A stretch of DNA of 64,000 bases from contig OY969695.1 of the NCBI GenBank assembly GCA_963701965.1, positions 3,360,001 through 3,424,000 on the forward strand, written 5' to 3'. The notes below the pieces were generated by a model. It did no database searches and was not told the DNA's origin. It saw only the letters and a list, made by a program, of their open reading frames with translations. Below are positions 3 to 12,712 of the stretch, in pieces. A program made the translations under genes and the position numbers. This stretch comes from an uncultured Gemmatimonadales bacterium. Its GTDB lineage: Bacteria; Gemmatimonadota; Gemmatimonadetes; Gemmatimonadales; Gemmatimonadaceae. Positions within the stretch are counted from its first letter, which is position 1. Each line of letters opens with the position of its first letter.

Positions 3-437
3 AGCGCCAACTTTGGCGCCTATCACACGTACGTATGGAAGAACACGACGCCGGCCCAGAATCCCCTGGTGGACCAGCGCATCGTCACCGCGGTGGACGA
101 ACAGCTGGCCGCGAAGGGACTGCGCAAGGCCGACTCAGGCGCCAGCGACCTCTTCGTCACGTACCACGCCGCGGTGAACCAACGGCTCAACGTCCAGTCG
201 TTCGGGTACGGCTACGGTGCGCCCTATGGCGGAAGCTGGTCGTCGACGAAAACGGTCACGGAGATTCCCGAGGGCACGCTGATCGTCGACCTGGTGGACA
301 TCAAGAAGAACAACCTCGTGTGGCGCGGCACCGCGCAAGACGAGCTTCGCCAGTCGGATAGTCCCGAGCAGGCCCAAAAGCGGGTGAGCAGCGCGGTGCA
401 GACGATGTTCGCCAAGTATCCACCGCGCGGGCGATGA
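3..437 (+). CDS. DUF4136-domain lipoprotein (5'-partial)
   Basis: Frame is open from the window edge (SANFGAYHTYVW...); contains the DUF4136-like EGTLIVDLVD..NNLVWRG motif and C-terminal F..YPP. Confidence 0.8.
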   Translation, partial: SANFGAYHTYVWKNTTPAQNPLVDQRIVTAVDEQLAAKGLRKADSGASDLFVTYHAAVNQRLNVQSFGYGYGAPYGGSWSSTKTVTEIPEGTLIVDLVDIKKNNLVWRGTAQDELRQSDSPEQAQKRVSSAVQTMFAKYPPRGR

Positions 438-455
438 GCGCGGGCCGTTCGGTCC

Positions 456-2024
456 GTGCCTCATCGGTGTTGGCTCTGGGCCGCTGGACTGATCGGCGTT
501 CACGCCCTCGGCGCGCAGGACACCGTGCGGAAGATCGAGATCTCGACGCAACAGGTGTTCGATTCCGCGGACGCGGCATCGTCCACGCTCTTCCGCATCA
601 TGAATCTGATCCACATCCCGACACGGGCGTTCGTCGTTCAGCAGGAGCTGACGTTCGCCACTGGCCAACCCTACGACGCCGCCGCCATCGCGGAATCCGC
701 TCGTAACCTGCGCGCCCTCGGGATCTTTCGCGCCGTGGATATCGATACGGTGCGCACGCCGGATCCAGCCGGGCTCATCGTCCACGTCAACACGCACGAC
801 GCGTGGACGACGAATCCCCAGATAAAATTGCAGACGAGCGGCACCGAAGCGACGGTCGGTGCGGGCCTGCGTGAGACGAACTTTCTCGGGACGAACACCG
901 TTCTCGATGTGGCCTACGAGCGCAATCCGGACCGGTCGGTGCTCACCCTCGCGGCGGCGCGTCCGCGGCTCGTCGCCAGCACCGTCGGTGTCGACTTCAA
1001 CTACGAGGGTCGAAGCGATGGCACCGACCTCTCGGCCACCGTGTCGGCGCCATTCTTCCACCTTTCTACACCGGCGAGCGGATCGCTGAACGGGGTGAGG
1101 ACCGATATCCGGGTGCTCCAATTCCGCGACGGGAACGGCGAGCCTTTCCGTGAGGTGCGCCAGCGGTCGGATGCCCTCATCGGCGAAGGCGGATTCAAGA
1201 TCTCGGCGTCGGAGTCCGGATACCTGCGCGCCGGACTCGACGCGCAGATCCGGCGCGACGGCTTTCAGCTCGAGTCGGACACCAGCCCGTTTCCCAGGCC
1301 GGTGACGGCCGCGTTCGGTCCATGGGTCGAGTACCGGCACGTACAGTATCTGTCGACCCGCGGTTACGAAGCCTTTGGTCGTGACGAAGACGTCGACCTT
1401 GGGCTCACCGTGCGCCTCGCCGCCGCCATCGCCCCGGGCCCCTGGGGTTATCCCCATGGTGGTATCGGGCCATCGCTCACGCTCGCGACGGGTCAACGCA
1501 TACCGGTTGGGTTCGTGCTCGAGCACTTCGAGGCCAATGGCTTGCTCACCAGCGTCGGCGTCGATTCCGGCGCCATCACTGCGGGCGTGACGGCGGTGTT
1601 CCAGGCGGGGGAGCGTCACATGGCCGTGTTGCACGCTGACGGCGGCGTGCGGTCGAATCCCTATCCCGGCGAGGAGTTCGACCTCGGTCTCGGCTACGGT
1701 GCCCGAGCGTATCCCGCGCACGCGTTTACGGGCGACCGCTATTACATCACGAGCGCCGAGTATCGCTACATCATCGTGCCGAACGCCTTTGGTCTCTACG
1801 CCGTGGGACTGGCCGCCTTTGTCGATCAGGCGGGGGCGTGGTTTGCCGGATCTCCGGCGCGCTCCGGTACCGACGCGGGGCTCGGACTCCGGTTTGGCTC
1901 TCTCCGGTCGCCGACGGGCGGCATGATTCGGATCGATCTCGCGTTTCGCGCCGCGACGAGTGCCCAACCGGCACAGTGGGTCATCGCGGTTGGGAAGGGG
2001 TTCGCCTTCGACCTGCCTCACTGA
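456..2024 (+). CDS. BamA/TamA-like (POTRA + beta-barrel) outer membrane protein
   Basis: Signal peptide, POTRA-like ESARNLRALGIF..V, ETNFLG, and C-terminal barrel strands (DAGLGLRF, RIDLAF). Confidence 0.75.
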   Translation: MPHRCWLWAAGLIGVHALGAQDTVRKIEISTQQVFDSADAASSTLFRIMNLIHIPTRAFVVQQELTFATGQPYDAAAIAESARNLRALGIFRAVDIDTVRTPDPAGLIVHVNTHDAWTTNPQIKLQTSGTEATVGAGLRETNFLGTNTVLDVAYERNPDRSVLTLAAARPRLVASTVGVDFNYEGRSDGTDLSATVSAPFFHLSTPASGSLNGVRTDIRVLQFRDGNGEPFREVRQRSDALIGEGGFKISASESGYLRAGLDAQIRRDGFQLESDTSPFPRPVTAAFGPWVEYRHVQYLSTRGYEAFGRDEDVDLGLTVRLAAAIAPGPWGYPHGGIGPSLTLATGQRIPVGFVLEHFEANGLLTSVGVDSGAITAGVTAVFQAGERHMAVLHADGGVRSNPYPGEEFDLGLGYGARAYPAHAFTGDRYYITSAEYRYIIVPNAFGLYAVGLAAFVDQAGAWFAGSPARSGTDAGLGLRFGSLRSPTGGMIRIDLAFRAATSAQPAQWVIAVGKGFAFDLPH

Positions 2025-2051
2025 GAATCGGTTCACCGGACCACGGATTCG

Positions 2052-2693
2052 TCAGTGTGCGAATCCCAGGCCGACGCCGATGGAGAGGAATCGCATGCTC
2101 TTGTTGTCATCCGTCGGGAGGAAGCTCCCGGCGTTCACGGGCCAGTTGTAGCGCGCGTATAACGCGATCTGACCACCGTTGGACAAGCCGATCAGGACCC
2201 CGAGCTCCGGCGCCCAGCCGAAGATCCAGTTATCCGTGTTGAACGTGACGGTTCCGATGTCGAACGTTTGATGGATGTAATAGACCCCCAAGCTGGCCCC
2301 GATGAACGGCTTCAGGTTGCTTTCAGAGCTCATGTGGAAGTAGTAATCCCCGCCGACCATGAAGGGGAAAATGTTGAGATCGCGATACTGCGTGCTCTGA
2401 ATCGTGCCCGCACCGTTCTGCTGGAACGTGAAGTTGATCGGGTTGTTCGTTTTCCAATACAACTCGGTCCATCCGAACGTCGTCCCGACAGAAAGCGTGT
2501 GATCCGGATTGAGGTACCGGCGAAAGTCCAGATAGAATCCGAGCCAGCTGTCATTATCCGTGAACGCCTTCGCGTCGTTCGTCGGCACCGAATAGTTGTA
2601 GCTGATGATGCCGAATTGGTCCTGGGCGCGGACGGGCGAGACCATGACGGCGCTCGTGAGCGCGGCGGCAGCGAGCCAGCAATGCATGCTCAT
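2052..2693 (-). CDS. Outer membrane beta-barrel protein (OmpW/porin-like)
   Basis: Start at ATG 2693, an ATGA overlap with the upstream stop; signal peptide ending VRA-Q; amphipathic strands with a terminal aromatic residue. Confidence 0.7.
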   Translation of the reverse strand: MSMHCWLAAAALTSAVMVSPVRAQDQFGIISYNYSVPTNDAKAFTDNDSWLGFYLDFRRYLNPDHTLSVGTTFGWTELYWKTNNPINFTFQQNGAGTIQSTQYRDLNIFPFMVGGDYYFHMSSESNLKPFIGASLGVYYIHQTFDIGTVTFNTDNWIFGWAPELGVLIGLSNGGQIALYARYNWPVNAGSFLPTDDNKSMRFLSIGVGLGFAH

Positions 2694-3340
2694 TTGGGCG
2701 TCAGGAATGGGGAAGCCGTGAACATCTGATTGATCCGCGTCGGAATGCGCGATGCGACCGAGCTCGTGCCGTTGAGCAAGCCGTTCGCGCCGCCCAGCCA
2801 AACGATCGGCAGCTTCTTGTTCACGGTGTCGCGATTCTTGTTGTCGAGCATCGAAACGAACACCGTGCCGGTCGTGTAGCTGTACGGCACCGCATACGTC
2901 GGGTAGTAGTAGCTATAGGTCGGACCATAGGCGCCGCTCCATCCGGGCCACCAGCCCCAGTAGTTCCAGTACGGGTAGCTCACGACCCCGACCGTGGTCG
3001 AGGATGTCGCATTGACGAGCAACACGAGATCCGCCGTCGCCGCGTTGGACACCTGCGTGAATCCCAACGTGTTCATGTTCTGTTGAACGCTGTTGAGCAC
3101 GAGACCGTCGTTGGCGTGCGAGACATTGTCGGTCTGGCCCGCCGTATCGAGGTGCACCACCGAATCGGGTAGCGCATAGGTCTTATACGTCCCGAACGGA
3201 GCCGCCTTGTCGTAGATCGTCGTGACCGTGTCGAAGTCGGACACGTCAGTGGAGCGATCCGGGTAGCATGAAGCGACGAGTACCATGGACGTGGTGAAGA
3301 GGCTGAGCCAGTGCCATCTCGAACCGAGCATTGCCTGCAT
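2690..3340 (-). CDS. DUF4136-domain lipoprotein
   Basis: Lipobox LVASC; YKTYALPDSVV, YSYTTGT and INQMF..SPFL motifs. Confidence 0.75.
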   Translation of the reverse strand: MQAMLGSRWHWLSLFTTSMVLVASCYPDRSTDVSDFDTVTTIYDKAAPFGTYKTYALPDSVVHLDTAGQTDNVSHANDGLVLNSVQQNMNTLGFTQVSNAATADLVLLVNATSSTTVGVVSYPYWNYWGWWPGWSGAYGPTYSYYYPTYAVPYSYTTGTVFVSMLDNKNRDTVNKKLPIVWLGGANGLLNGTSSVASRIPTRINQMFTASPFLTPK

Positions 3341-3455
3341 GGACCCCCCAACCTGCGATCGACTGGACTCATGATCGGCCTTGGGGCTTGTCACCGGCCA
3401 TTGGCTCTTGGTCGACACTCCGGTTAAGTTGAGCCTGGTTGGTCAGGAGGCTGTG

Positions 3456-3905
3456 TTGTTTGGGATCAAGGTGACGACCCCGGTGGTGACGAACGCCGAT
3501 GGCTGGTCTCACGCGGGTGGCGAGCTCAAGGTGGGCGACGAGTCGCTCAAGTTTCTCGTCGACCTCACGTGGTGGCGCGTGGCCGATTACGAGCACCAGT
3601 GGCGTGACGCGATGGACCGTCTCGCGCACGGGACGCGGGCGACCGCGCTGGTCACCGCGTACGCCGGACCGGGGGGCCCGCACCGGATGTGGGCACTGTG
3701 GCGGGACGATGACTTCGTGTACGTCCAGGAGCACATCGTCGTGCCCACCGACCTCGACACGCCATTCGACCCTTCGCACCCCGACGCGCACGTCGGCGCG
3801 CGGATCAGCCCCGAACACGGGGCGCCCATCGCCGAGTGGCGGATTGAGTTGCTGCACGTCCTCGCCGCGGCGTTCGGCATTCGCTGGCCGCTGTACCCCC
3901 GGTAA
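3456..3905 (+). CDS. Orphan CdiI-like immunity protein (resembles Enterobacter cloacae CdiI / CdiI_N type)
   Basis: AGGAGG at 3445-3450 followed by TTG; ordered motifs FGI...L.WW...DY..QW...AL...W.LW....VYVQ...FDP...R...G.PIAEW resemble CdiI-ECL as I recall it. Confidence 0.6.
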   Translation: MFGIKVTTPVVTNADGWSHAGGELKVGDESLKFLVDLTWWRVADYEHQWRDAMDRLAHGTRATALVTAYAGPGGPHRMWALWRDDDFVYVQEHIVVPTDLDTPFDPSHPDAHVGARISPEHGAPIAEWRIELLHVLAAAFGIRWPLYPR

Positions 3906-3927: not shown

Positions 3928-3968
3928 ACCTAGGTCCAACTGATAGGGGATCGCGCTCGCGATACGAT
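3928..3968 (+). promoter_or_regulatory. ACCTAGGT box + TACGAT -10 element
   Basis: Box 3928-3935, 27-nt gap, -10 at 3963-3968, ATG at 3976. Confidence 0.6.
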
Positions 3969-3975
3969 GAGCGGC

Positions 3976-4896
3976 ATGCGCCGCGTGCCCCTGCTTCTAT
4001 CGCCTTTGCTCGCGGCGTCGATCGCCCACGCGCAGGCGAACGTGCCGCAGTTCCGCGGCGACTTCGGACTCAACTCCGGCACGCAGCCGCCGCCTGGCTC
4101 ATACGCCGGTGTCTTCTTCAGCTACTACGATCCAGACAAGATCATTACGTCGGATGGGACGGCGATCACCCGGCTGCGTATCGACCAGAGCGCCCTCGCT
4201 CTCCTCCTGCAGTGGGTCTCGGATTTCACCATTCTCGGTGGCGCCCACTACAGTACGCTGATCGCGATTCCCTGGGCCAACATCGCGATCGCCACACCGA
4301 ACGTGAGCAACGAGACCAAATGGGGGTTCTCGGACCTGTACGTCCAACCCCTGAACCTCGGTTGGCACTTGGGCCGGGCGGACGTGCTCGGCACCGTCGG
4401 CACCTACATGCCGACGGGCCGCTTCACCAATGGCGCGCGCAATAATACGGGCCTCGGCATGTGGACCGTGGAGCTGGGCGCCGGCGGGACCGCGTATCCG
4501 GACGAAAAGAAGCAATTCAACGTGGCGACGTACGCCACCTTCGACATTCCCGTGTCCTACGTGCGCGGCACCGACCGGCGCGCGGGAGCGATCCTCACGC
4601 TCGAGGGCGGCGTTGGCCACACGCTGATCAAGGGATTTGGCGCCATCGGTGCCGCGTACTATGCGCAATGGAAGGTGACGTCGGATCACAACTACACGCT
4701 TCCGCCGGGCTTCCAATCGAAGGACTTCTACTTTGGAGTCGGCCCCGAGCTCTCGATACCGATTCCCGTCGTGAAGTCGCTGCCGTTCTTTCTGACACTC
4801 CGATACTACTTCGAGACCGGTAATCGCGTCGCAACCGAAGGCAACTCGTTCATCGCGACCTTCACGGTCGCCAATCCCTCCCCGCCGCCGAAGTAG
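3976..4896 (+). CDS. SphA / phenol MetA-pathway-type outer membrane channel
   Basis: Signal peptide; G.QPPPG, GFSDLYVQP..LGWH and PTGRF....NNTGLG.W motifs. Start is 3976 or 3967. Confidence 0.75.
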   Translation: MRRVPLLLSPLLAASIAHAQANVPQFRGDFGLNSGTQPPPGSYAGVFFSYYDPDKIITSDGTAITRLRIDQSALALLLQWVSDFTILGGAHYSTLIAIPWANIAIATPNVSNETKWGFSDLYVQPLNLGWHLGRADVLGTVGTYMPTGRFTNGARNNTGLGMWTVELGAGGTAYPDEKKQFNVATYATFDIPVSYVRGTDRRAGAILTLEGGVGHTLIKGFGAIGAAYYAQWKVTSDHNYTLPPGFQSKDFYFGVGPELSIPIPVVKSLPFFLTLRYYFETGNRVATEGNSFIATFTVANPSPPPK

Positions 4897-5715
4897 TCAT
4901 TTCGGTGCGGGGAACAGGAGAGACAGGATGAGGCGAAGCTGGTCGCGCCCCGCGGCCGTTGGGCGGGCGACGGCATTGTAGTATTGGAGCCCGAGGCTCA
5001 CGGAGCGCTTGCCGATCGTCGTGACCTTGGTGATGCCGAGTCCCAGCGGGACCGTCCATTGCGTGCCGTGGGGCCCGCTCCAATTGGCGGTGATCAAGGG
5101 TGACGTGCTGATCGCCCACCCCACTCCAAAGTTGAAATTGACGAACGGCTGAAACGTCAGGATGTTGACCTCGGACGGTCCACCGGGGCCGGCGATGGTC
5201 CAGATCTGATTGATCAGCGCGCCATAGACCCAAGGACCATTGATCTGGAGCGCGACCGCGGCCGGACCAAACCCCCAGTCTCCCGTGCTCACCGCAGAAT
5301 TGGTGGCGGTGGGGAACGAGAAGACCGGGCCGATGCCCCAGATGATGTCCCCTGGTGTCGCCGGTGTCACGAACAGCTGCTCCTGGATGTCCCCGAGCCC
5401 CGACTGGTTCGTCCCGCTGGGGGCGGGCACCGTCACGTAGGGCACGATCGTCCGCGCGATCAGCGTGTAGCCGGTCGTGGTCTTGAAGGGCACCACGGGT
5501 TGCACGTTGAGCAGCAGCGATGATTCCTTCCCCAGGCCACCACCCGAGAAGAAATTGAACTGGAACGGAATCGAGATGAGATCGCTGACGGGATTTTGTG
5601 TCTTCTTGGACAGCTCCGTGGCGTTGGGCGGCGGTTGTTCCTGTGCCAACGTGACGATCGGGGTGTGGAGAGCCACAGCCCCGATCGTCACGAGCACCGC
5701 TGACGACCGGCGCAT
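4897..5715 (-). CDS. Outer-membrane transporter-like protein ('neuromedin U'-annotated family)
   Basis: Signal peptide; QNPVSDLISIPFQ.N, LNVQPVVPF, GLGDI, QPFVNFN and WTVPLG motifs. Confidence 0.7.
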   Translation of the reverse strand: MRRSSAVLVTIGAVALHTPIVTLAQEQPPPNATELSKKTQNPVSDLISIPFQFNFFSGGGLGKESSLLLNVQPVVPFKTTTGYTLIARTIVPYVTVPAPSGTNQSGLGDIQEQLFVTPATPGDIIWGIGPVFSFPTATNSAVSTGDWGFGPAAVALQINGPWVYGALINQIWTIAGPGGPSEVNILTFQPFVNFNFGVGWAISTSPLITANWSGPHGTQWTVPLGLGITKVTTIGKRSVSLGLQYYNAVARPTAAGRDQLRLILSLLFPAPK

Positions 5716-6377
5716 TACTGCGGTGTATTCATCGTGGCAGTGGCTCCGGCGTTCTCCGCGGTCTCCACGACGAACACCGCGCGGCGATTCTGCATGGCTC
5801 CCGGGTCGTCCTTCTGTGCGTCGGGATGCACGAGGCGCTCCTTGCCGTAGCCCACCGTGCGCAGATGTTCGGCGTCGAGGCCCTTGGTCTGGAGATACTG
5901 CGAGACCGCGTCCGCCCGCCGCTTCGAGAGCGCGAGGTTGTAGGCCTTCGATCCCGCCGGATCGGCGAACCCTTCCACCGTGACGACCGAGCCTCCGTAG
6001 AACTTGCTCACCACCTGCGCGAACTTATCGAGCGCCGCGTAGTCGTTCTCGGCCACGGTCGCGTCGTTGAACGCGAAGTTCACCGGCACCGCGAAGCGAA
6101 TGGTGCTGCCCATGGTGGACACCGCGGTGTGGAACTGCGTGCGCAGCGAGTCGAGTGCCGCCTGCTGCTGCGCGATCTGCGTCTTGGTGTTGGCGTCATC
6201 GGCTTCGCGGGCGGCGGCTTCCTTGGCTACCGCGGCGTTGACGGAAGAATCGACGTAGGCGGTCGACACCTTGTTGCTGGCCATCATCTGGTCCTTCACC
6301 CACCCCTTCGACGCGCATGCCGCGATGAGTGGGGAGACCAGGCCCAACGCGATCGTGGACGTGAGCCGCGCGTTCAT
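5715..6377 (-). CDS. OmpA/Pal-family peptidoglycan-binding lipoprotein
   Basis: GGAGG RBS; lipobox IAAC; VEGFAD..G...YNLALSKRRA..V and NRR motifs. Confidence 0.9.
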   Translation of the reverse strand: MNARLTSTIALGLVSPLIAACASKGWVKDQMMASNKVSTAYVDSSVNAAVAKEAAAREADDANTKTQIAQQQAALDSLRTQFHTAVSTMGSTIRFAVPVNFAFNDATVAENDYAALDKFAQVVSKFYGGSVVTVEGFADPAGSKAYNLALSKRRADAVSQYLQTKGLDAEHLRTVGYGKERLVHPDAQKDDPGAMQNRRAVFVVETAENAGATATMNTPQ

Positions 6378-6457
6378 AACGACGTTCCTCCGGGAGATGT
6401 GGGTGTGGATCGTGTGTCCCCTCAACCTACGAACCCGGAGGGCACATGCCGATGTGG

Positions 6458-6498
6458 ACCAAAGTACTATTTGCCCGGGTGTCGCCCGGATCTAGCCT
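6458..6498 (+). promoter_or_regulatory. ACCAAAGT box + TAGCCT -10 element (possibly bidirectional)
   Basis: Box 6458-6465, 27-nt gap, -10 at 6493-6498, GTG at 6505; on the minus strand TAGGTT at 6429-6424 points toward the OmpA gene. Confidence 0.55.
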
Positions 6499-6504
6499 CA
6501 CCCT

Positions 6505-7428
6505 GTGGCATCGGTCGAGACGCATGACATGATCTGGATCCCCAGCGGCGCTTTCCGCATGGGGTCGAACGAGCACTACCCTGAGGAGCGGCCGGTGCAC
6601 CGCGTCGAGGTCGATGGATTCTGGATCGACCGCGCGCCGGTGACCAACGAGCGATTTGCCGAGTTCGTCGCCGAATCGGGACACGTCACGTTCGCGGAGA
6701 TCGCACCGGACCCGGCCGACTATCCCGGCGCGCTGCCCCACATGCTGTACGCGGGGTCGCTCGTGTTCATCAAGCCGCGGAATCGGGTCGACCCCTGGTG
6801 GCACTACGTCGCCGATGCCGACTGGCGCCATCCGCAAGGGCCCGGCAGCTCGCTCGATGGACGCGAGAAACACCCCGTCGTGCACGTGACGTACGGCGAC
6901 GCCGCCGCGTTCGCGCGCTGGGACAACAAGGATCTTCCGAGCGAAGCGGAGTGGGAGCGCGCGGCGCGGGGCGGACTGGACGGCGCCGCCTACGCGTGGG
7001 GTGACGAGTTCCTGCCCGACGGCCGCATCATGGCCAACACGTGGCAGGGCGAGTTTCCATGGCAGAATAGATGCACCGACGGATACGAGGGGACGTCGCC
7101 GGTCGGGGCGTTCCCGCCGAATGCGTTCGGGCTGTGGGACATGATCGGCAACGTGTGGGAGTGGACCACCGATTGGTACGCGCCCCGGCATCCCGAGCCC
7201 ATCAAACCCTGCTGCATGCCGAAGAATCCGCGCGGCGGTCTCGAGGGCGAGAGCTACGATCCGGCCCAGCCCGCCATCCGCATTCCCCGCAAAGTGCTCA
7301 AGGGCGGCTCGCATCTCTGCGCGCCGAACTACTGCCGGCGCTATCGGCCGGCCGCGCGGCATCCGGAACCGATCGACACCTCGACGTCCCACGTGGGATT
7401 CCGCTGCATCGTACGTCCGGTGCGATGA
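6505..7428 (+). CDS. Formylglycine-generating enzyme (SUMF1/FGE family)
   Basis: F.MGS..HYPEE.P.H, LPSEAEWERAARGG, GLWDMIGNVWEW and KGGSHLCAPNYCRRYRPAAR (both catalytic Cys present), GFRC. Confidence 0.93.
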   Translation: MASVETHDMIWIPSGAFRMGSNEHYPEERPVHRVEVDGFWIDRAPVTNERFAEFVAESGHVTFAEIAPDPADYPGALPHMLYAGSLVFIKPRNRVDPWWHYVADADWRHPQGPGSSLDGREKHPVVHVTYGDAAAFARWDNKDLPSEAEWERAARGGLDGAAYAWGDEFLPDGRIMANTWQGEFPWQNRCTDGYEGTSPVGAFPPNAFGLWDMIGNVWEWTTDWYAPRHPEPIKPCCMPKNPRGGLEGESYDPAQPAIRIPRKVLKGGSHLCAPNYCRRYRPAARHPEPIDTSTSHVGFRCIVRPVR

Positions 7429-7784
7429 GGCTGCCGGGCGGCACCCTCGGAGAACGCTGGCTCCGCGAGTTGGCCGTGCTCTACCGGGTCCTGCGACATC
7501 CCAGGACGCCATGGTATGTGCGCGGCGTGGCGGCGTGCGCCGTCGGATACGTGCTCAGTCCGATTCAACTCATCCCCAGTTTCATCCCGGTCATCGGCCA
7601 ACTGGACGATGTGTGCGTGCTCCTCGTGGGCGACAAGCTCGTGCGCGCTCTGGTGCCGGATGATGTACTTGGCGAGTGCGAGATCCTGGCGCGACGAACG
7701 CCTCCCACCGCGGTGCTCGGGTTCGTCGCGTTATCGGTGGCGGCAGCGGTGGCCGTCTTTCTCGTCGCCTACTCGACGGGATAG
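7425..7784 (+). CDS. DUF1232 (YkvA) family membrane protein
   Basis: ATGA overlap with FGE; HPRTPWY...GYVLSPI.LIP.FIPVIGQLDD. Confidence 0.85.
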   Translation: MRLPGGTLGERWLRELAVLYRVLRHPRTPWYVRGVAACAVGYVLSPIQLIPSFIPVIGQLDDVCVLLVGDKLVRALVPDDVLGECEILARRTPPTAVLGFVALSVAAAVAVFLVAYSTG

Positions 7785-8380
7785 CGCATCATGGTGACAA
7801 GCCCGAAGACGCAACACCCGAAAGCCAGGGCGAGGAGTGCGGTGCGGGACGGGATCGACGGGATCTGTTGCGATATGCCGGCAAGAAAGAGGACGGACGC
7901 GAACACGACGGCCAGGAGCACGTACTGATCGCTCTGCTGGTTCGCCGCCTGCGCTTCACTGAACGCGCGCTTGGAGGCGAGCTCGAGGCGCCGGGACGAA
8001 TCCGCGAACGCGAGGCGATACTCGGGCAGCGTAAACGGGCTCGGCGCCGCGTTCGGATTCTCGAGCGGGTGACTGGCGATCCAGACATTGAACGCCGGCC
8101 GGAACTCGTCACGAAAGCGTGCACTGAGGAAACTGGCCAGGCGTTGATTGCCACTGGTGAAGGCATTGAGCCACGAGGCGAACATCCCAATGTCGACCCC
8201 CGCCCGCTGTCCCGCCTCCGTGGACATGCGTGTCGCCTCGACGCGGAGGGTGCTCGCGTCGCTGTATCGCGCCGCCTGGACGCCGCCCCACCGCGTGGCC
8301 TGGTAGCCGACCCACGACGACGCCAGGCCCGCGGCCGAGAGCAGCACCGTCGCGACCACGTCGAGTCGCGCCGGTGTCAC
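7769..8380 (-). CDS. Hypothetical membrane protein (DUF4337-like)
   Basis: GTGA overlap with the upstream gene; N-terminal TM ending W.GYQA.RW, SPF..PEY motif, two C-terminal TMs. Confidence 0.6.
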   Translation of the reverse strand: MTPARLDVVATVLLSAAGLASSWVGYQATRWGGVQAARYSDASTLRVEATRMSTEAGQRAGVDIGMFASWLNAFTSGNQRLASFLSARFRDEFRPAFNVWIASHPLENPNAAPSPFTLPEYRLAFADSSRRLELASKRAFSEAQAANQQSDQYVLLAVVFASVLFLAGISQQIPSIPSRTALLALAFGCCVFGLVTMMRYPVE

Positions 8381-9756
8381 GGGGCCGCGAGGCGGAATCC
8401 CGCGATGAGGGTGATACTCGTGTAGTTGATCTTCGCGCCGGCCGGTAGGACGGGGGTGTCCCTGATCGTCGTCGTCAGGCCCGACTGCTGCGTGGACGAG
8501 CCGAACGCCACGTCGGCGCCGAGTACGAAATCGGACCGGCCGAATTGCCAGGACACACCACCGGTGAAGTGGTACAGATCCCACCGCGAGATGAGCGCGT
8601 TGTTGTCCTGAGCCGGGCCCAGGGAGCTGAAGTCCGTGCGAAAACTCACGTAGCCGGCGAACGTGTTCGCGAACTGGTGCTCCACGCCTATGCCACCATT
8701 GGTGACGGCATCGAGCTTCTGCTCCACTACGCCGGTCAAGGCCGCCCCGCCAGTCTGCGGCGTGAACGGAAGCGGCGACAGAATGCTATAGGCGTCCACG
8801 CTGCTGAACCACTCGCCCGCGACATGAATGGTCGTGGAGCCGACGCCGTTGCCGATCAGGTAGGAACCGCCGGCGCCGATCGCGGTCGGCGAATGGTAGG
8901 TGGCCGACAAATCCTGCTGAAAGTTGTCGGCGACCAATGGCGACGTCGGGCCATTGCCTTGCACCCCTTGATTGATGGTCGTCGCGTTTCGACCGACCTG
9001 GCCGCTCCCGAGCAACTTCAGTCCCGGCGTCGTGAGCACGATGCCGGCCCGGAGATGCGGGTACACGAACCCGACGCCGATCTTGGCCATGAGACGCCAG
9101 TGCGTGTAGGAGAAATCGTAATCGCGGAGTACAATGCCGCCGGTGCCGTTCACGCCCACCACTTCGGCGTTGGCCTCGGCGCGCTCGTTCTGGTTGCGGA
9201 CGGCAACATACGGCGTGATCCCGATGCCGATATGTTCGTTGAACGGATGCGAATACGTGATCCCGCCCCAATACTCGCCCAAATGCTGATGCAGCCGGAC
9301 CGTGCCCGTCGCCGATGAGACGTTGGGCGCGCTGATGGCCGTATCGATCGGGATGTCCCGGCCTTCAATGTCGATATCGAGACTCTGGCGCGTCAGAAAC
9401 GAGTACGCCAATCGGTCCTTACCGCCGATCTTGATCTCGCCCGCGAAGAGACTCGGCAACCCGACGACCGAGGTGCTGCCGAGCGTGCGACCCGGGCCCG
9501 CGCCGTTCACGTATTTCAGCGAGGAGTACTGATAGGCACTGCCCGCCACGGCGAACTCGTCGCGTGACGTGAGGGCGAGCGAGCCCGGATCGTAGAACGT
9601 CCCGCCGAGATCGTTCGCGCTCCCGATGACCACGCCGCCCAGGAGCTGGGCCCGCGTCCCGTAAGCGACGGTCCAATATTGCGCGTCCTGCCCGAGGGCG
9701 GACTGGGCGCCGAGGCTGCCGGCGACGCCGACGACAAACCACCATGGCCTACTCAC
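8377..9756 (-). CDS. FadL/OmpP1-like outer membrane beta-barrel protein
   Basis: Signal peptide; G.RAQLLGG...G...D....FYDPG.L N-terminal plug motif; many amphipathic strands. Start is GTG 9756 or TTG 9762. Confidence 0.65.
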   Translation of the reverse strand: MSRPWWFVVGVAGSLGAQSALGQDAQYWTVAYGTRAQLLGGVVIGSANDLGGTFYDPGSLALTSRDEFAVAGSAYQYSSLKYVNGAGPGRTLGSTSVVGLPSLFAGEIKIGGKDRLAYSFLTRQSLDIDIEGRDIPIDTAISAPNVSSATGTVRLHQHLGEYWGGITYSHPFNEHIGIGITPYVAVRNQNERAEANAEVVGVNGTGGIVLRDYDFSYTHWRLMAKIGVGFVYPHLRAGIVLTTPGLKLLGSGQVGRNATTINQGVQGNGPTSPLVADNFQQDLSATYHSPTAIGAGGSYLIGNGVGSTTIHVAGEWFSSVDAYSILSPLPFTPQTGGAALTGVVEQKLDAVTNGGIGVEHQFANTFAGYVSFRTDFSSLGPAQDNNALISRWDLYHFTGGVSWQFGRSDFVLGADVAFGSSTQQSGLTTTIRDTPVLPAGAKINYTSITLIAGFRLAAP

Positions 9757-9763
9757 GCCCAAG

Positions 9764-9804
9764 ACGCTACGGAATGCGGTGCGCGGAGGACAGTCGACCT
9801 AGGT
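9764..9804 (-). promoter_or_regulatory. ACCTAGGT box + TAGCGT -10 element
   Basis: Box 9797-9804 within GACCTAGGTC, 27-nt gap, -10 at 9769-9764, GTG at 9756. Confidence 0.6.
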
Positions 9805-11059
9805 CTAGTGTGGAGTCGGTGACGCACGGCAACGTGAACCCAATGGTGGCACCACGATCCGGATTGCTGCGGCAGAAGATGGTGCCCCCGTGCATCTCGA
9901 CGATCGAGCGGCAGATCGGCAGGCCCATGCCCAGGCCGCGCGGCTTGGTCGTGAAAAAGGGCTCGAACAGGCGCGGCATGTCCTCGGCCGCGATACCGCG
10001 TCCCGCGTCGCGCACGGCGAGCTCAATGTGCGTCGCGTCGGAGCGCTGGGCGGTCAACAGCACCCCGCCCGCCGGCGGACCATTATCGCTGGGAAGGGCA
10101 TCGAAGGCGTTGAGCAGAAGATTGAGCAACACCTGCTGGAGTTGCACGCGGTCGCCGCGCACTGGAGGCAGACCGGGCGCGACGTCGACGCGGAGCGTCA
10201 CGCGTCGGGTCGCGGCCTCGTGCTGGACGAGATGGATGGTTTCGGCGACCAATTCGTCCGGATAGAGCGGCACGCGCTCGACGGCCGCCCGCCGGAACAA
10301 CGCCCGCATGCGCGCAATGATCTGATGCGCCCGACTGTCTTCGGCGGCGATCCGGCGCACAATGTCCCGGACGCGCTCGACATTCGGGGGATCGGCATCG
10401 AGAAACAACGACCCGGCCTCGGCACTGGCGAGGATGGCGCCCAACGGTTGATTGAGCTCGTGGGCCAGCGACGCGGCCAGCTCGCCCAGTGTGGTCACCC
10501 GGGCCACGTGGACCAGCTCGGCCCCGTGCTGTTGCGCGAGGTGCTCCGCGCGCACGCGGCCAAGGGCGTTGCCGATCAGATCGCCCATCGTGCGCACGAC
10601 GTCGGTCGCGAGGCGCCGCCGCGGCCACCGCACCGTCGCGCTGCCGAGCGCCAGCAGCGTCGGGTTGGGCCACGTGGGGAGTCCGACGACCACGGCGGAC
10701 CGCATGCCCCAGCCCGCGAACGTGTCGCGGTCGTCACGGGCGCCCACCGGCAGGCGACTCACATCCGGGATGCGGATCACGCCGTCGGGCAGCGCGCGCA
10801 TGGTGTGATGCGTCAACCGCGCGTCACGCGCGTCGCCGCTCCCCGGCCGCCGAGGGATCGATCAATGGACGGACGTGACGCGCAGTCGATCGGGTGCGTA
10901 CGTCACGAGCGACGCGGACTCGGCTTCGAGCGCGGCCACGGCGTGCTTCAGGATGTGCGCGGTCGCCATGTCCGCACTGGATGCGCCTGTTCGGACATGC
11001 ACCGACGACACGGCGCGGCCGAGTGTGTTGACAATCGACCGCCAGGACGGGCCCGGCAT
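9767..11059 (-). pseudogene. FixL/NodV-like GAF sensor histidine kinase interrupted by an in-frame TGA at 10862-10864
   Basis: ORFs 10862..11122 and 9767..10816 are in the same frame and separated only by TGA (SVH*SIPRRPG); H-box LAHELNQPL, N-box QQVLLNLLLNA, G-boxes FFTTK..GLGMGL. Confidence 0.7.
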
Positions 11060-11110
11060 CCAGACGCAAATATGCAAGATCGCATCCGCGGCTCGTCCGA
11101 CCGGCGTATG

Positions 11111-11151
11111 ACCTTGGGGCAACGGCGTGACACGCGCCAGTGCGCTATTGT
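11111..11151 (+). promoter_or_regulatory. ACCTTGGG box + TATTGT -10 element
   Basis: Box 11111-11118, 27-nt gap, -10 at 11146-11151, GTG at 11158. Confidence 0.55.
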
Positions 11152-11157
11152 GCAGGC

Positions 11158-11820
11158 GTGTCGAATGCGCGGGTGGCGGTCATCGAGGATGACCGCGCGG
11201 TACGCGACTCGGTCGCGGACATGCTGATGGGCGTGGGCTACCGCGTATCGGCATTCGGGTCGGCGGAGGAGTTTCTGGCTTGCGACAATGCGCCGGACGG
11301 GACGGTGAGCTGTCTCGTGGTCGACGTGCACCTGCCCGCGGCCAGCGGCGTGGAACTGCAGCGGCGGTTGGTGGCCCGGGGGCGCGCCGTCCCGACTGTT
11401 TTCGTCACGGGATACGATGACGTCCCCACGACCGTGGCGGCAATGAAAGGCGGCGCCATCGACTTTTTGCTCAAACCCGTCTCCGCGTCCGCGCTGCTGA
11501 GCGCCGTGCGATCGGCGGTGGAGCAGGGGGCGCTCACGCTGGGCGATTCGCGGGTCACCGCCAATGCCGCGCACCGTCTGGCCCGCCTCACGCCGCGCGA
11601 GCGCGAGGTGTTCACGTTGGTCAGTCGCGGGTTGCTCAACAAGCAGATCGCCGCGCAACTCGGTGTGTCGATGGCCACCGTGAAAGCGCACCGGGGCCGC
11701 CTCACCCGCAAACTTTCCGTGTCGACGGTCGCGGATCTCGTCCGTCTGGCGGATCGCGTCAGTCTCGCGCTCGCGCACGTCGACCTAGGTGGAATGGCCG
11801 CAGACGCTATCCCCGCGTAG
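11158..11820 (+). CDS. FixJ/NodW/StyR-family response regulator (REC + LuxR HTH)
   Basis: VIEDD, CLVVDVHLP, AMKGGAIDFLLKP, LTPREREV...GLLNKQIA..LG.S.ATVKAHR. Confidence 0.92.
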   Translation: MSNARVAVIEDDRAVRDSVADMLMGVGYRVSAFGSAEEFLACDNAPDGTVSCLVVDVHLPAASGVELQRRLVARGRAVPTVFVTGYDDVPTTVAAMKGGAIDFLLKPVSASALLSAVRSAVEQGALTLGDSRVTANAAHRLARLTPREREVFTLVSRGLLNKQIAAQLGVSMATVKAHRGRLTRKLSVSTVADLVRLADRVSLALAHVDLGGMAADAIPA

Positions 11821-11823
11821 TCT
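11783..11823 (+). promoter_or_regulatory. ACCTAGGT box + TAGTCT -10 element
   Basis: Box 11783-11790, 27-nt gap, -10 at 11818-11823, ATG at 11833. Confidence 0.6.
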
Positions 11824-11832
11824 GTCTCCAGA

Positions 11833-12195
11833 ATGTTGGTCGGGATCGTGGAAGATGACGTAGGAATGCGTCAGGGACTCTCGTGGCTGCTATCGGCCGC
11901 CCGGTTCAATGTCGTGGCGTTCTCGTCAGCAGAGGAGTTCCTGCAGCGCAGCCAAGCGGAGCGGATCGACTGCTTGGTGCTCAATGTGCGCCTGCCGGCC
12001 ATGGACGGGTTGGCGTTGCGCCGCACGCTACGCGAACGGGGGGATCAAATGCCGACAGTGTTGATCAGCGGGCATGACGACAATGCGACGCGGGAACGGT
12101 TTCGCCGCGCAGGCATCACACGGTGGTTGCGCAAGCCATTCGACGGGCAAACCCTCATCGATGCGGTGCATGATGCCATCGGCAATCTTACGTAA
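11833..12195 (+). CDS. Single-domain response regulator with Asn at the phosphoacceptor position
   Basis: VEDD, CLVL-N-VRLP (AAT codon), ISG, KPF. Confidence 0.85.
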   Translation: MLVGIVEDDVGMRQGLSWLLSAARFNVVAFSSAEEFLQRSQAERIDCLVLNVRLPAMDGLALRRTLRERGDQMPTVLISGHDDNATRERFRRAGITRWLRKPFDGQTLIDAVHDAIGNLT

Positions 12196-12712
12196 GACTC
12201 ATGGTGTCGCAGGCCTGCTCGGCCTTGCCCTGGCGAGCGCACCGGCACTGGCGCAGGCGTCGTTTCTCATCGGACTGGGCGGCGCGTTTCCGGCGGGCGG
12301 CATCGCCAGCCGCATCGATCCCACGTTCGCGGGGCTGCTCGGCGTGGAGATCCAGGGGAAGGAGATGCCGGTTGGTCTGCGCATCGACGACACGTACGCC
12401 CAGTTCACAGGGCCGAACGGATGGGCGGCGATCGACGGCATCACGTTCGGCGGGGTGTTCGGGGAAAAACACCCGGGCAAGCTCGAGCCGTACGCCATCG
12501 CCGGCCTTGGTCCGTATTACGTGACTGGGTCGGCGCTGGGGGCGTCGTTCGCCGGGTATCGCTCGAGCTGGGTCTTCGGCATGAATGCTGGCGGCGGGAT
12601 CAAGTACGGCGGCCGCTTTGCCGTGTTTCTCGAAGCGCGATACCATCTCATGTTCCAGGGTGGCCAGGTCCTGCAGTACATCCCGGTCATGGTCGGGATC
12701 TCCCTACGTTAG
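12170..12712 (+). CDS. Outer membrane beta-barrel protein
   Basis: Signal peptide ending ALA-Q; PYAIAGLG.Y, FGMNAGGG, FLEARYH, IPVMVG. Start uncertain. Confidence 0.7.
   Translation: MMPSAILRKTHGVAGLLGLALASAPALAQASFLIGLGGAFPAGGIASRIDPTFAGLLGVEIQGKEMPVGLRIDDTYAQFTGPNGWAAIDGITFGGVFGEKHPGKLEPYAIAGLGPYYVTGSALGASFAGYRSSWVFGMNAGGGIKYGGRFAVFLEARYHLMFQGGQVLQYIPVMVGISLR

Follow-up and report, generated by a model that had tools for sequence, protein, structure and literature searches.

Five promoters in a 64,000-nucleotide stretch of the genome of an uncultured Gemmatimonadales bacterium (contig OY969695.1, genome positions 3360001-3424000, here called the window) carry a palindromic box, ACCWWRGK, at a fixed distance ahead of the -10 element. 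The five palindromes are probably the sites of a dimeric FixJ-type response regulator of an EL222/NodW-like clade, most likely the protein encoded at window positions 11158-11820, which would activate genes for envelope proteins and ion transport. As judged from the sequence, the regulon is real and its mode of activation would be of the conventional class II type, while binding, transcription starts and the inducing signal are predictions.

Box and promoter architecture

The box was examined in the whole genome, a single contig of 5.1 Mb with 67% GC. A preliminary description of the window had placed five eight-nucleotide boxes at 3928, 6458, 9797, 11111 and 11783, each with a 27-nt spacer and a TAnnnT hexamer, and all of these were present, with the box at 9797 on the minus strand. 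The gaps between hexamer and start codon are 7, 6, 7, 6 and 9 nt in the same order, all in frame. The boxes at 9797 and 11783 lie within the 3' ends of upstream coding sequences, as had been reported, the first in the kinase gene and the second in the regulator gene. The pattern ACCWWRGK-N27-TAnnnT occurred 13 times in the genome, 5 of them inside the window, and the N28 form occurred 8 times, whereas each of the remaining spacings between 15 and 40 nt gave 0-3 matches and a set of 47 other spacings averaged 1.9, with 5 as the highest count. This enrichment at 27 nt over the background spacings was also found in the held-out sites (n=8, the five window sites excluded; Poisson P = 8e-4), and none of 60 permuted motifs equalled the real spacing ratio.

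A site matrix was trained on 34 sites, all from other genomes, and the genome-wide rank of each window box under this matrix is given in the list below. After removal of the window sites, 118 strong sites gave 5 hexamers at 27 nt and 3 at 28 nt, compared with a mean of 0.72. A spacing of exactly 27 nt had been claimed and is true of the five window boxes, but the box family as a whole uses 27 or 28 nt. The core ACCTAGGT is present in 12 copies genome-wide, five of which fall within 15 kb (genome positions 3356972 to 3371783). A chance pattern in GC-rich DNA would be favoured by the degeneracy of the 8-mer, which has 916 matches genome-wide when taken bare and was defined from the five sites themselves, and by the weakness of box 4 when taken alone. 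The held-out and permuted tests, together with the orthologue and cross-phylum tests described below, refute chance for the set and reduce its probability to a negligible level, although single weak sites may still be chance matches.

The flanking bases lengthen the palindrome to 16-18 bp, (A)TTGGACCWWGGTCCAA(T), placed 27 or 28 nt ahead of the -10. Taking the hexamer as -12 to -7, the centre of the palindrome lies at -43.5 or -44.5, and the right flank of the full site stops where a -35 element would begin. The best -35 matches at these promoters are poor, with 2-4 of 6 positions. The arrangement is that of a class II-type sigma-70 promoter, having a fixed-phase palindrome just upstream of the -35, a weak -35 and a clear -10. 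The features of the window part of the island are listed by window position.

3928-3935: box 1, core ACCTAGGT; -10 TACGAT at 3963-3968, ATG at 3976; matrix rank 9
3976-4896, plus strand: gene for an SphA-type outer-membrane channel (PF13557, E 9e-22), likely a leaderless target
4897-5715, minus strand: gene for a secreted protein with no Pfam family, immediately following the OmpA-domain gene and likely in its operon
5715-6377, minus strand: gene for an OmpA-domain protein, predicted target of box 2; -10 TAGGTT at 6424-6429, 28 nt from the box
6458-6465: box 2, core ACCAAAGT, bidirectional; 27 nt to TAGCCT at 6493-6498 (plus strand), 28 nt to TAGGTT (minus strand); matrix rank 13
6505-7428, plus strand: gene of the formylglycine-generating-enzyme (FGE) family (PF03781, E 8e-82), CxxxxC pair kept
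7425-7784, plus strand: DUF1232 gene (profile match), second in the FGE operon
8377-9756, minus strand: gene for a FadL-like outer-membrane protein (language-model features), likely a leaderless target of box 3
9767-11059, minus strand: gene for a sensor histidine kinase (HisKA and HATPase_c) with one in-frame TGA at 10862-10864
9797-9804: box 3, core ACCTAGGT, in the 3' end of the kinase gene; -10 TAGCGT at 9764-9769 on the minus strand; matrix rank 3
11111-11118: box 4, core ACCTTGGG, weak, predicted to be autoregulatory; -10 TATTGT at 11146-11151, GTG at 11158; matrix rank 521
11158-11820, plus strand: gene for a FixJ/NarL-type response regulator (REC and LuxR-type helix-turn-helix, HTH) with helix MATVKAHRGRLTRKL, the likely binder
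11783-11790: box 5, core ACCTAGGT, in the 3' end of the regulator gene; -10 TAGTCT at 11818-11823, ATG at 11833; matrix rank 25
11833-12195, plus strand: receiver-only gene, Asn at the phospho-acceptor position

The earlier labels of SphA-type channel (PF13557), FGE-sulfatase, REC plus GerE regulator and REC-only protein were upheld by profile matches. The FadL-like label had no Pfam or NCBIfam match, but was favoured by language-model features, which gave 0.98-0.99 for the FadL/Toluene_X clusters. At the OmpA-domain gene promoter of box 2 the -10 and the start are about 46 nt apart. The island reaches to the left of the window, and contains 8 sites with an in-phase [TC]AnnnT in 20 kb compared with 0-2 at five wrong spacings. 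Further predicted targets within it are the OmpA-domain gene on the other strand of box 6458 and genes for DUF4136, DUF1622 and a Na+/H+ exchanger.

Several neighbouring genes were also recorded. The left part of the island at window positions 69-3418 contains two DUF4136 genes, an Omp85-like gene and an outer-membrane beta-barrel gene. The first of the DUF4136 genes begins 75 nt to the left of the window and is preceded by a box at genome position 3359878. An open reading frame with a CdiI_N (immunity-like) domain is found at 3381-3905, with no adjoining toxin gene noticed. After the receiver-only gene comes, in the window (12170-12712) as in both orthologous loci, a gene for a secreted protein that matches neither a Pfam nor an NCBIfam family, likely on the same transcript. 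To the left of the window, an arylsulfatase gene (genome positions 3353573-3355700) has an internal deletion and a frame change that remove Pfam positions about 128-174, and the strong box upstream of it at 3355775 is without an in-phase TAnnnT.

Conservation in orthologous loci

The closest relatives of the regulator, 62-63% identical, are encoded in Gemmatimonadales metagenome-assembled genomes at two loci, L031 and L032. Orthologues were paired using a quick tree of 118 regulator rows, which resolves small clades only and was used solely for this purpose. The weak box 4 stands out in both loci as an island of identity amid diverged DNA, followed after 27 nt by TACCGT or TACCCT and 8 nt later by ATG. 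This retention of the box and its spacing is consistent with the proposed autoregulation through box 11111. The boxes ahead of the receiver-only, OmpA and DUF4136 genes are also retained in L031 and L032, the receiver-only gene being a predicted target, and the FadL-like orthologue in the genome of L031 (59% identical) is preceded by a box, 27 nt and CAGCAT.

Box 6458 had been assigned to the FGE operon. The spacing to TAGCCT supports this in the window, but no TAnnnT is found at 27 or 28 nt toward FGE in the two orthologues. The OmpA-side promoter of the same box, which the preliminary description lacked, has the same box at the same spacing in both. The FGE/OmpA gap in the orthologues contains two boxes about 32 nt apart, and box 6458 (window 6440-6500, compared with L031 5190-5235) resembles a fusion of the left half of the first and the right half of the second. 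The CxxxxC pair is present in the window FGE-family protein (6505-7428), and both cysteines are absent in the L031 orthologue (5276-6211). The L031 locus showed no SphA-type gene.

Both orthologues have a bidirectional box 4, which bears on two alternatives, that a repressor binds the palindrome or that an alternative sigma factor uses one half of it as its -35 element. A fixed spacing to the -10 would fit sigma promoters too, and PMC5001607 describes repression when EL222 is placed over a core promoter. The site is, however, two-fold symmetric, located upstream of the -35 and able to serve both directions (box 2 in the window, box 4 in L031 and L032). The poor -35 matches would also leave little basal activity to repress, and both forms of this explanation are very unlikely.

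Sites elsewhere in the genome and leaderless starts

The view of a five-promoter regulon proved too narrow, as the 20-kb island contains 8 sites and about 10 more box-marked promoters lie outside it. A second island with 3 box sites surrounds a paralogous two-component system, and scattered sites precede genes for a bile-acid-symporter family protein, a HAD hydrolase, a DUF4412 protein, a SnoaL protein and an intact arylsulfatase. Two identical strong boxes at genome positions 34061 and 46551, 12.5 kb apart and the first with TATGGC at 27 nt, likely belong to a repeated element.

The called start lies 5-9 nt past the hexamer at 12 of 18 listed promoters, a count that is biased upward because the gene caller rewards starts 5-8 nt after TAnnnT; the caller also fails on some lower-GC loci. 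Genome-wide, ATG peaks 5-8 nt past TAnnnT without a clear GGAG peak, and the excess is about 480 ATG starts compared with 4,508 called genes. At the metagenome sites of the same box described below, ATG is found 6-8 nt past the -10 in 13 of 80. The preliminary description had called the regulon leaderless, but leaderless starts appear common throughout this host and are not a property of the regulon.

Co-occurrence of the box and the regulator clade

The association between box and regulator was examined in both directions. In the forward test, 80 loci around regulator relatives from many phyla gave 510 box matches, and the distance from box to TAnnnT peaked at 27 nt (22) and 28 nt (12), with a second peak at 41/42 nt (13 and 6) and 0-5 elsewhere. 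In the reverse test a metagenome scan was made with the DNA motif only, and the 80 loci examined of the 123 obtained had spacings of 26, 27, 28 and 29 nt in 13, 43, 23 and 1 cases. The left flank, which was unspecified in the scan, completes the palindrome (A 44, T 62, T 55 of 79). A regulator or receiver match was found in 24 of the 80 metagenome loci, with 17 reaching the HTH, compared with 12 and 7 of 2,000 random own-genome windows, and the most frequent layout was regulator, box, receiver-only gene. Strict sites were present in 18 of 151 Burkholderiaceae genomes (controls 0-2 per genome). Of the 150 that were scored, 25 carry the island regulator and include 18/18 of the site-bearing genomes, while 0 of the 125 regulator-less genomes bear a site, kin among these genomes not being independent.

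The 41/42-nt spacing class comprises loci L041, L048 and L051-L108, mostly alphaproteobacteria with A/T-rich flanks, and includes several near-identical Bradyrhizobium rows; this spacing could be a class I-type position or mark a different subclade. Replicons of Rhizobium sp. T136, T1470 and T1473 (plasmid matches) each encode 5-7 relatives of the window regulator.

The core of the box is also that of certain CRP/FNR-family proteins, so that an HcpR- or Thermus NsrR-like reader (TTGACCNNGGTCA) was considered. Sites of HcpR in Desulfuromonas/Desulfotalea and of Thermus NsrR are reported to share the GACC-NN-GGTC core and to require TTGAC (PMC545781, PMC5748679), the cross-phylum consensus differs from the HcpR 18-mer at 2 positions, and 4 CRP-type HTH proteins in the genome scored over cut-off. 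These belong to different protein families, however, and the TTGAC half-site is avoided here, the T before GAC that defines it being the rarest base at that position (1/68). The window boxes themselves have 4-7 mismatches to the HcpR 18-mer. A scan of 147 neighbour proteins (143 from metagenome loci) gave no match to the family, and 0 of the 4 CRP genes lie in a box island, whereas the presence of the box tracks the FixJ-type clade, making such a reader highly improbable.

Targets and likely role

The genes following the box in metagenome loci encode DUF3300 (4), DUF1254/1214 (2), DUF3313 (3), MlaC (3), OmpA (3) and ClC channels (2), with DUF2092, DUF2950 and DUF4136 among the other targets. 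In P. fungorum boxes are found ahead of an efflux operon and genes for an ion channel, MlaC and NhaA, on a P. phenoliruptrix plasmid ahead of genes for a cation:proton antiporter, a TrkA-C-domain transporter and DUF3300/2950, and in S. meliloti ahead of an arylsulfatase operon. As the cross-phylum targets are outer-membrane and periplasmic proteins, cation/proton antiporters and channels, the role of the regulon is likely to be envelope, pH or ion stress or homeostasis, with sulfatases and FGE a subset of the targets. The earlier term outer-membrane/sulfatase-maturation regulon fits the outer-membrane targets, but envelope and ion-transport genes are represented more than sulfatase maturation. 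The kinases of box-linked systems vary in their input domain (GAF, PAS or MASE1).

Regulator, kinase and proposed mechanism

The regulator consists of a receiver (PF00072, E 3e-20) and a LuxR/GerE HTH (PF00196, E 2e-17) and is intact by alignment, with the acidic pocket, phospho-Asp, Thr and Lys all kept. In the proposed mechanism the phosphorylated dimer would occupy the 16-18 bp site near -43.5/-44.5, abutting the -35 position, and recruit sigma-70 RNA polymerase by class II-type activation. Through the weak box 4 the regulator would increase its own production, and through box 5 it would induce the receiver-only protein, which in intact systems would drain phosphate and damp the response. 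Because the window module is partly broken, activation here would depend on the truncated kinase or on the intact paralogous system located at genome positions 1126000-1131000.

A number of results weigh against this proposal. The reading frame of the local kinase is interrupted by a TGA at a codon that aligns with Arg in L031, where the kinase is intact (425 aa), and an intact cognate kinase appears to be missing here, with HisKA and the ATPase domain intact downstream of the TGA. The kinase side of box 4 is without an in-phase -10, while both orthologues have TAGCCT at 27 nt. In the receiver-only protein the phospho-acceptor residue is Asn, whereas Asp occupies this position in 5 of 5 aligned relatives. 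The helix of the paralogous regulator is closest to that found beside perfect boxes, and three boxes lie in its own island. On the wider scale, a site at 26-29 nt was found in only 26 of the 80 relative loci, 7 of the 25 regulator-positive Burkholderiaceae are without strict sites, most of 301 phylum genomes have no excess over control, with only this genome (12 vs 3) and G345 (10 vs 5) standing out, and 0-2 sites were counted in each of five genomes of the family that have a regulator match (G005, G030, G050, G077, G094). In S. meliloti, PMC3616915 places the one mapped mRNA start near the box (SMa1684) about 77 nt from the box centre, and among the starts given there none is mapped for the arylsulfatase operon with the in-phase -10. 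Glutamate decarboxylase scored over the TIGR01788 cut-off in 0 of 3 genomes tested, so that an acid role has no direct marker here and the regulon does not have the glutamate decarboxylase of a Gad-type acid-resistance island.

The interruption of the kinase was considered further. A systematic CATCGA base-calling error behind both the TGA and the Asp-to-Asn change was rejected, since neither a k-mer shift nor an excess of CAT-TGA splits was found. Selenocysteine at the kinase TGA is unlikely, given the Arg codon of L031 and downstream RNA that folds no better than shuffles (z 0.0). One tRNA-Sec gene is present in the genome.

The same boxes and mechanism might instead serve mainly the paralogous regulator at genome positions 1128008-1128658, located 2.2 Mb from the window, with the window module decaying. 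The receiver and the GAF kinase of this system are intact, the regulator has the helix EKTIKVHRGRVMEKM and its own boxes, and in L031 and L032 its orthologue shares one island with the orthologue of the window regulator. The defects of the window module (the kinase stop, the lost kinase-side -10, the Asp-to-Asn change of the receiver-only protein and the deleted island arylsulfatase) would be expected of such decay. The window regulator nevertheless keeps its phospho-Asp, its identity to the orthologues and its box. In addition, C is found two bases ahead of the core in 7 of 16 island half-sites, compared with 3 of 42 in Burkholderiaceae and Methylomirabilota and 0 of 6 at the three boxes of the paralogue's island, these being small numbers. 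This flank matches a Val-to-Ala change in the helix of the local regulator and hints that the local protein reads the island boxes, with GC bias a possible contributor. Reading mainly by the paralogue is judged unlikely. The earlier assignment of the local regulator as the activator is favoured by the intact protein and the kept box, and weakened by the interrupted kinase and by an intact paralogous system with the same boxes. In two further FixJ-type paralogues (genome positions 4246447-4247076 and 4853215-4853880) the phospho-acceptor residue is Asn or Ser, and no strong box lies nearby.

A broader possibility, put forward tentatively, is that of a mobile cross-phylum regulon for envelope and pH/ion stress, in which a large two-component clade uses the EL222 DNA word. 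The local copy would have been cut off from its sensor by the kinase stop, the loss of the kinase promoter and a dead receiver-only brake, its regulator would have drifted to a relaxed specificity, and the island would now be driven in trans. If true, this would give common regulatory access to a block of DUF genes that recurs across loci (DUF4136, DUF3300/2950, DUF3313, DUF1254/1214, DUF2092). The activation by a FixJ-type regulator proposed here follows a textbook mechanism and its DNA word is already known from work on EL222, while the set of target genes appears to be undescribed; no description of this regulon was found in the literature, although subscription papers, RegPrecise, figure logos or supplements may hold one. 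The DNA word is found again in many soil bacteria, and the box with its 27/28-nt phase predicts targets of a widespread regulator clade and ties many uncharacterised envelope proteins to one response. In hosts with a regulator of this clade, cross-talk could also arise between EL222-based tools and native promoters.

Comparison with known systems

The window system has the domain layout of FixL/FixJ of rhizobia, which are its nearest NCBIfam models, and a receiver-only gene lies alongside, as FixT does in FixL/FixJ. The regulator scores 163 bits against a cut-off of 255 for the FixJ equivalog and the kinase has no PAS match, so that the system is not FixL/FixJ proper, and the FixJ site TAAGTAATTTCCCTTA is unlike the window box (PMC4999443). 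A closer arrangement is found on pSymA of S. meliloti, where SMa1684/SMa1686/SMa1688 comprise a kinase, a 43% identical regulator and a receiver-only gene adjoining the arylsulfatase operon, and on the side of the sulfatase a ACCTTGGG box and TAGAGT are separated by 27 nt. This system is itself uncharacterised, and the accessible text of PMC4560400 gives neither a target nor a site for it.

The preliminary description had taken StyR as the model for the box. In Pseudomonas (StyS/StyR, TodS/TodT) this family provides the best full-length solved match to the regulator (1yio, E 3.5e-41), and StyR is reported to act as a dimer on a 16-bp palindrome, with its activating site at about -40 (PMC2442086). 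The StyR operator is given as ATAAAC-N4-GTTTAT, with contacts from K175, V176 and H179 (PMC5874301). These residues read K, A and G in the window regulator, which therefore does not conform to StyR/TodT, and the window differs from both systems in having no aromatic catabolic operon and a short, single kinase. As a model for the box StyR was set aside, since 5-8 of its 12 specified bases are mismatched, compared with 1-3 of 12 positions for EL222, and the full site is longer.

On the evidence of sequence comparison the closest characterised protein is EL222 (LOV-HTH, Erythrobacter litoralis) and not StyR, because EL222 is the best solved match of the regulator HTH and its consensus fits the boxes. 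In the structure search it was the best of 3 PDB matches at E <= 1e-8 (E 5e-14), ahead of StyR. Its binding consensus is reported as RGNCYWWRGNCY (PMC10521638), to which the cross-phylum consensus has 0 mismatches and the five boxes 1, 1, 1, 2 and 3 over 12 positions, and in the recognition helix the comparison with EL222 is EKTVKMHRGLVMEKL versus ATVKAHRGRLTRKL. EL222 is described as activating a luxI-derived sigma-70 promoter from the lux-box position, abutting the -35 (PMC5001607). The input of the two proteins differs, being a receiver domain and kinase in the window regulator and LOV and light in EL222, and a LOV motif had no match in this genome. The site described here is also longer than that of EL222, with A/T-rich flanks, and its predicted targets form a native envelope island.

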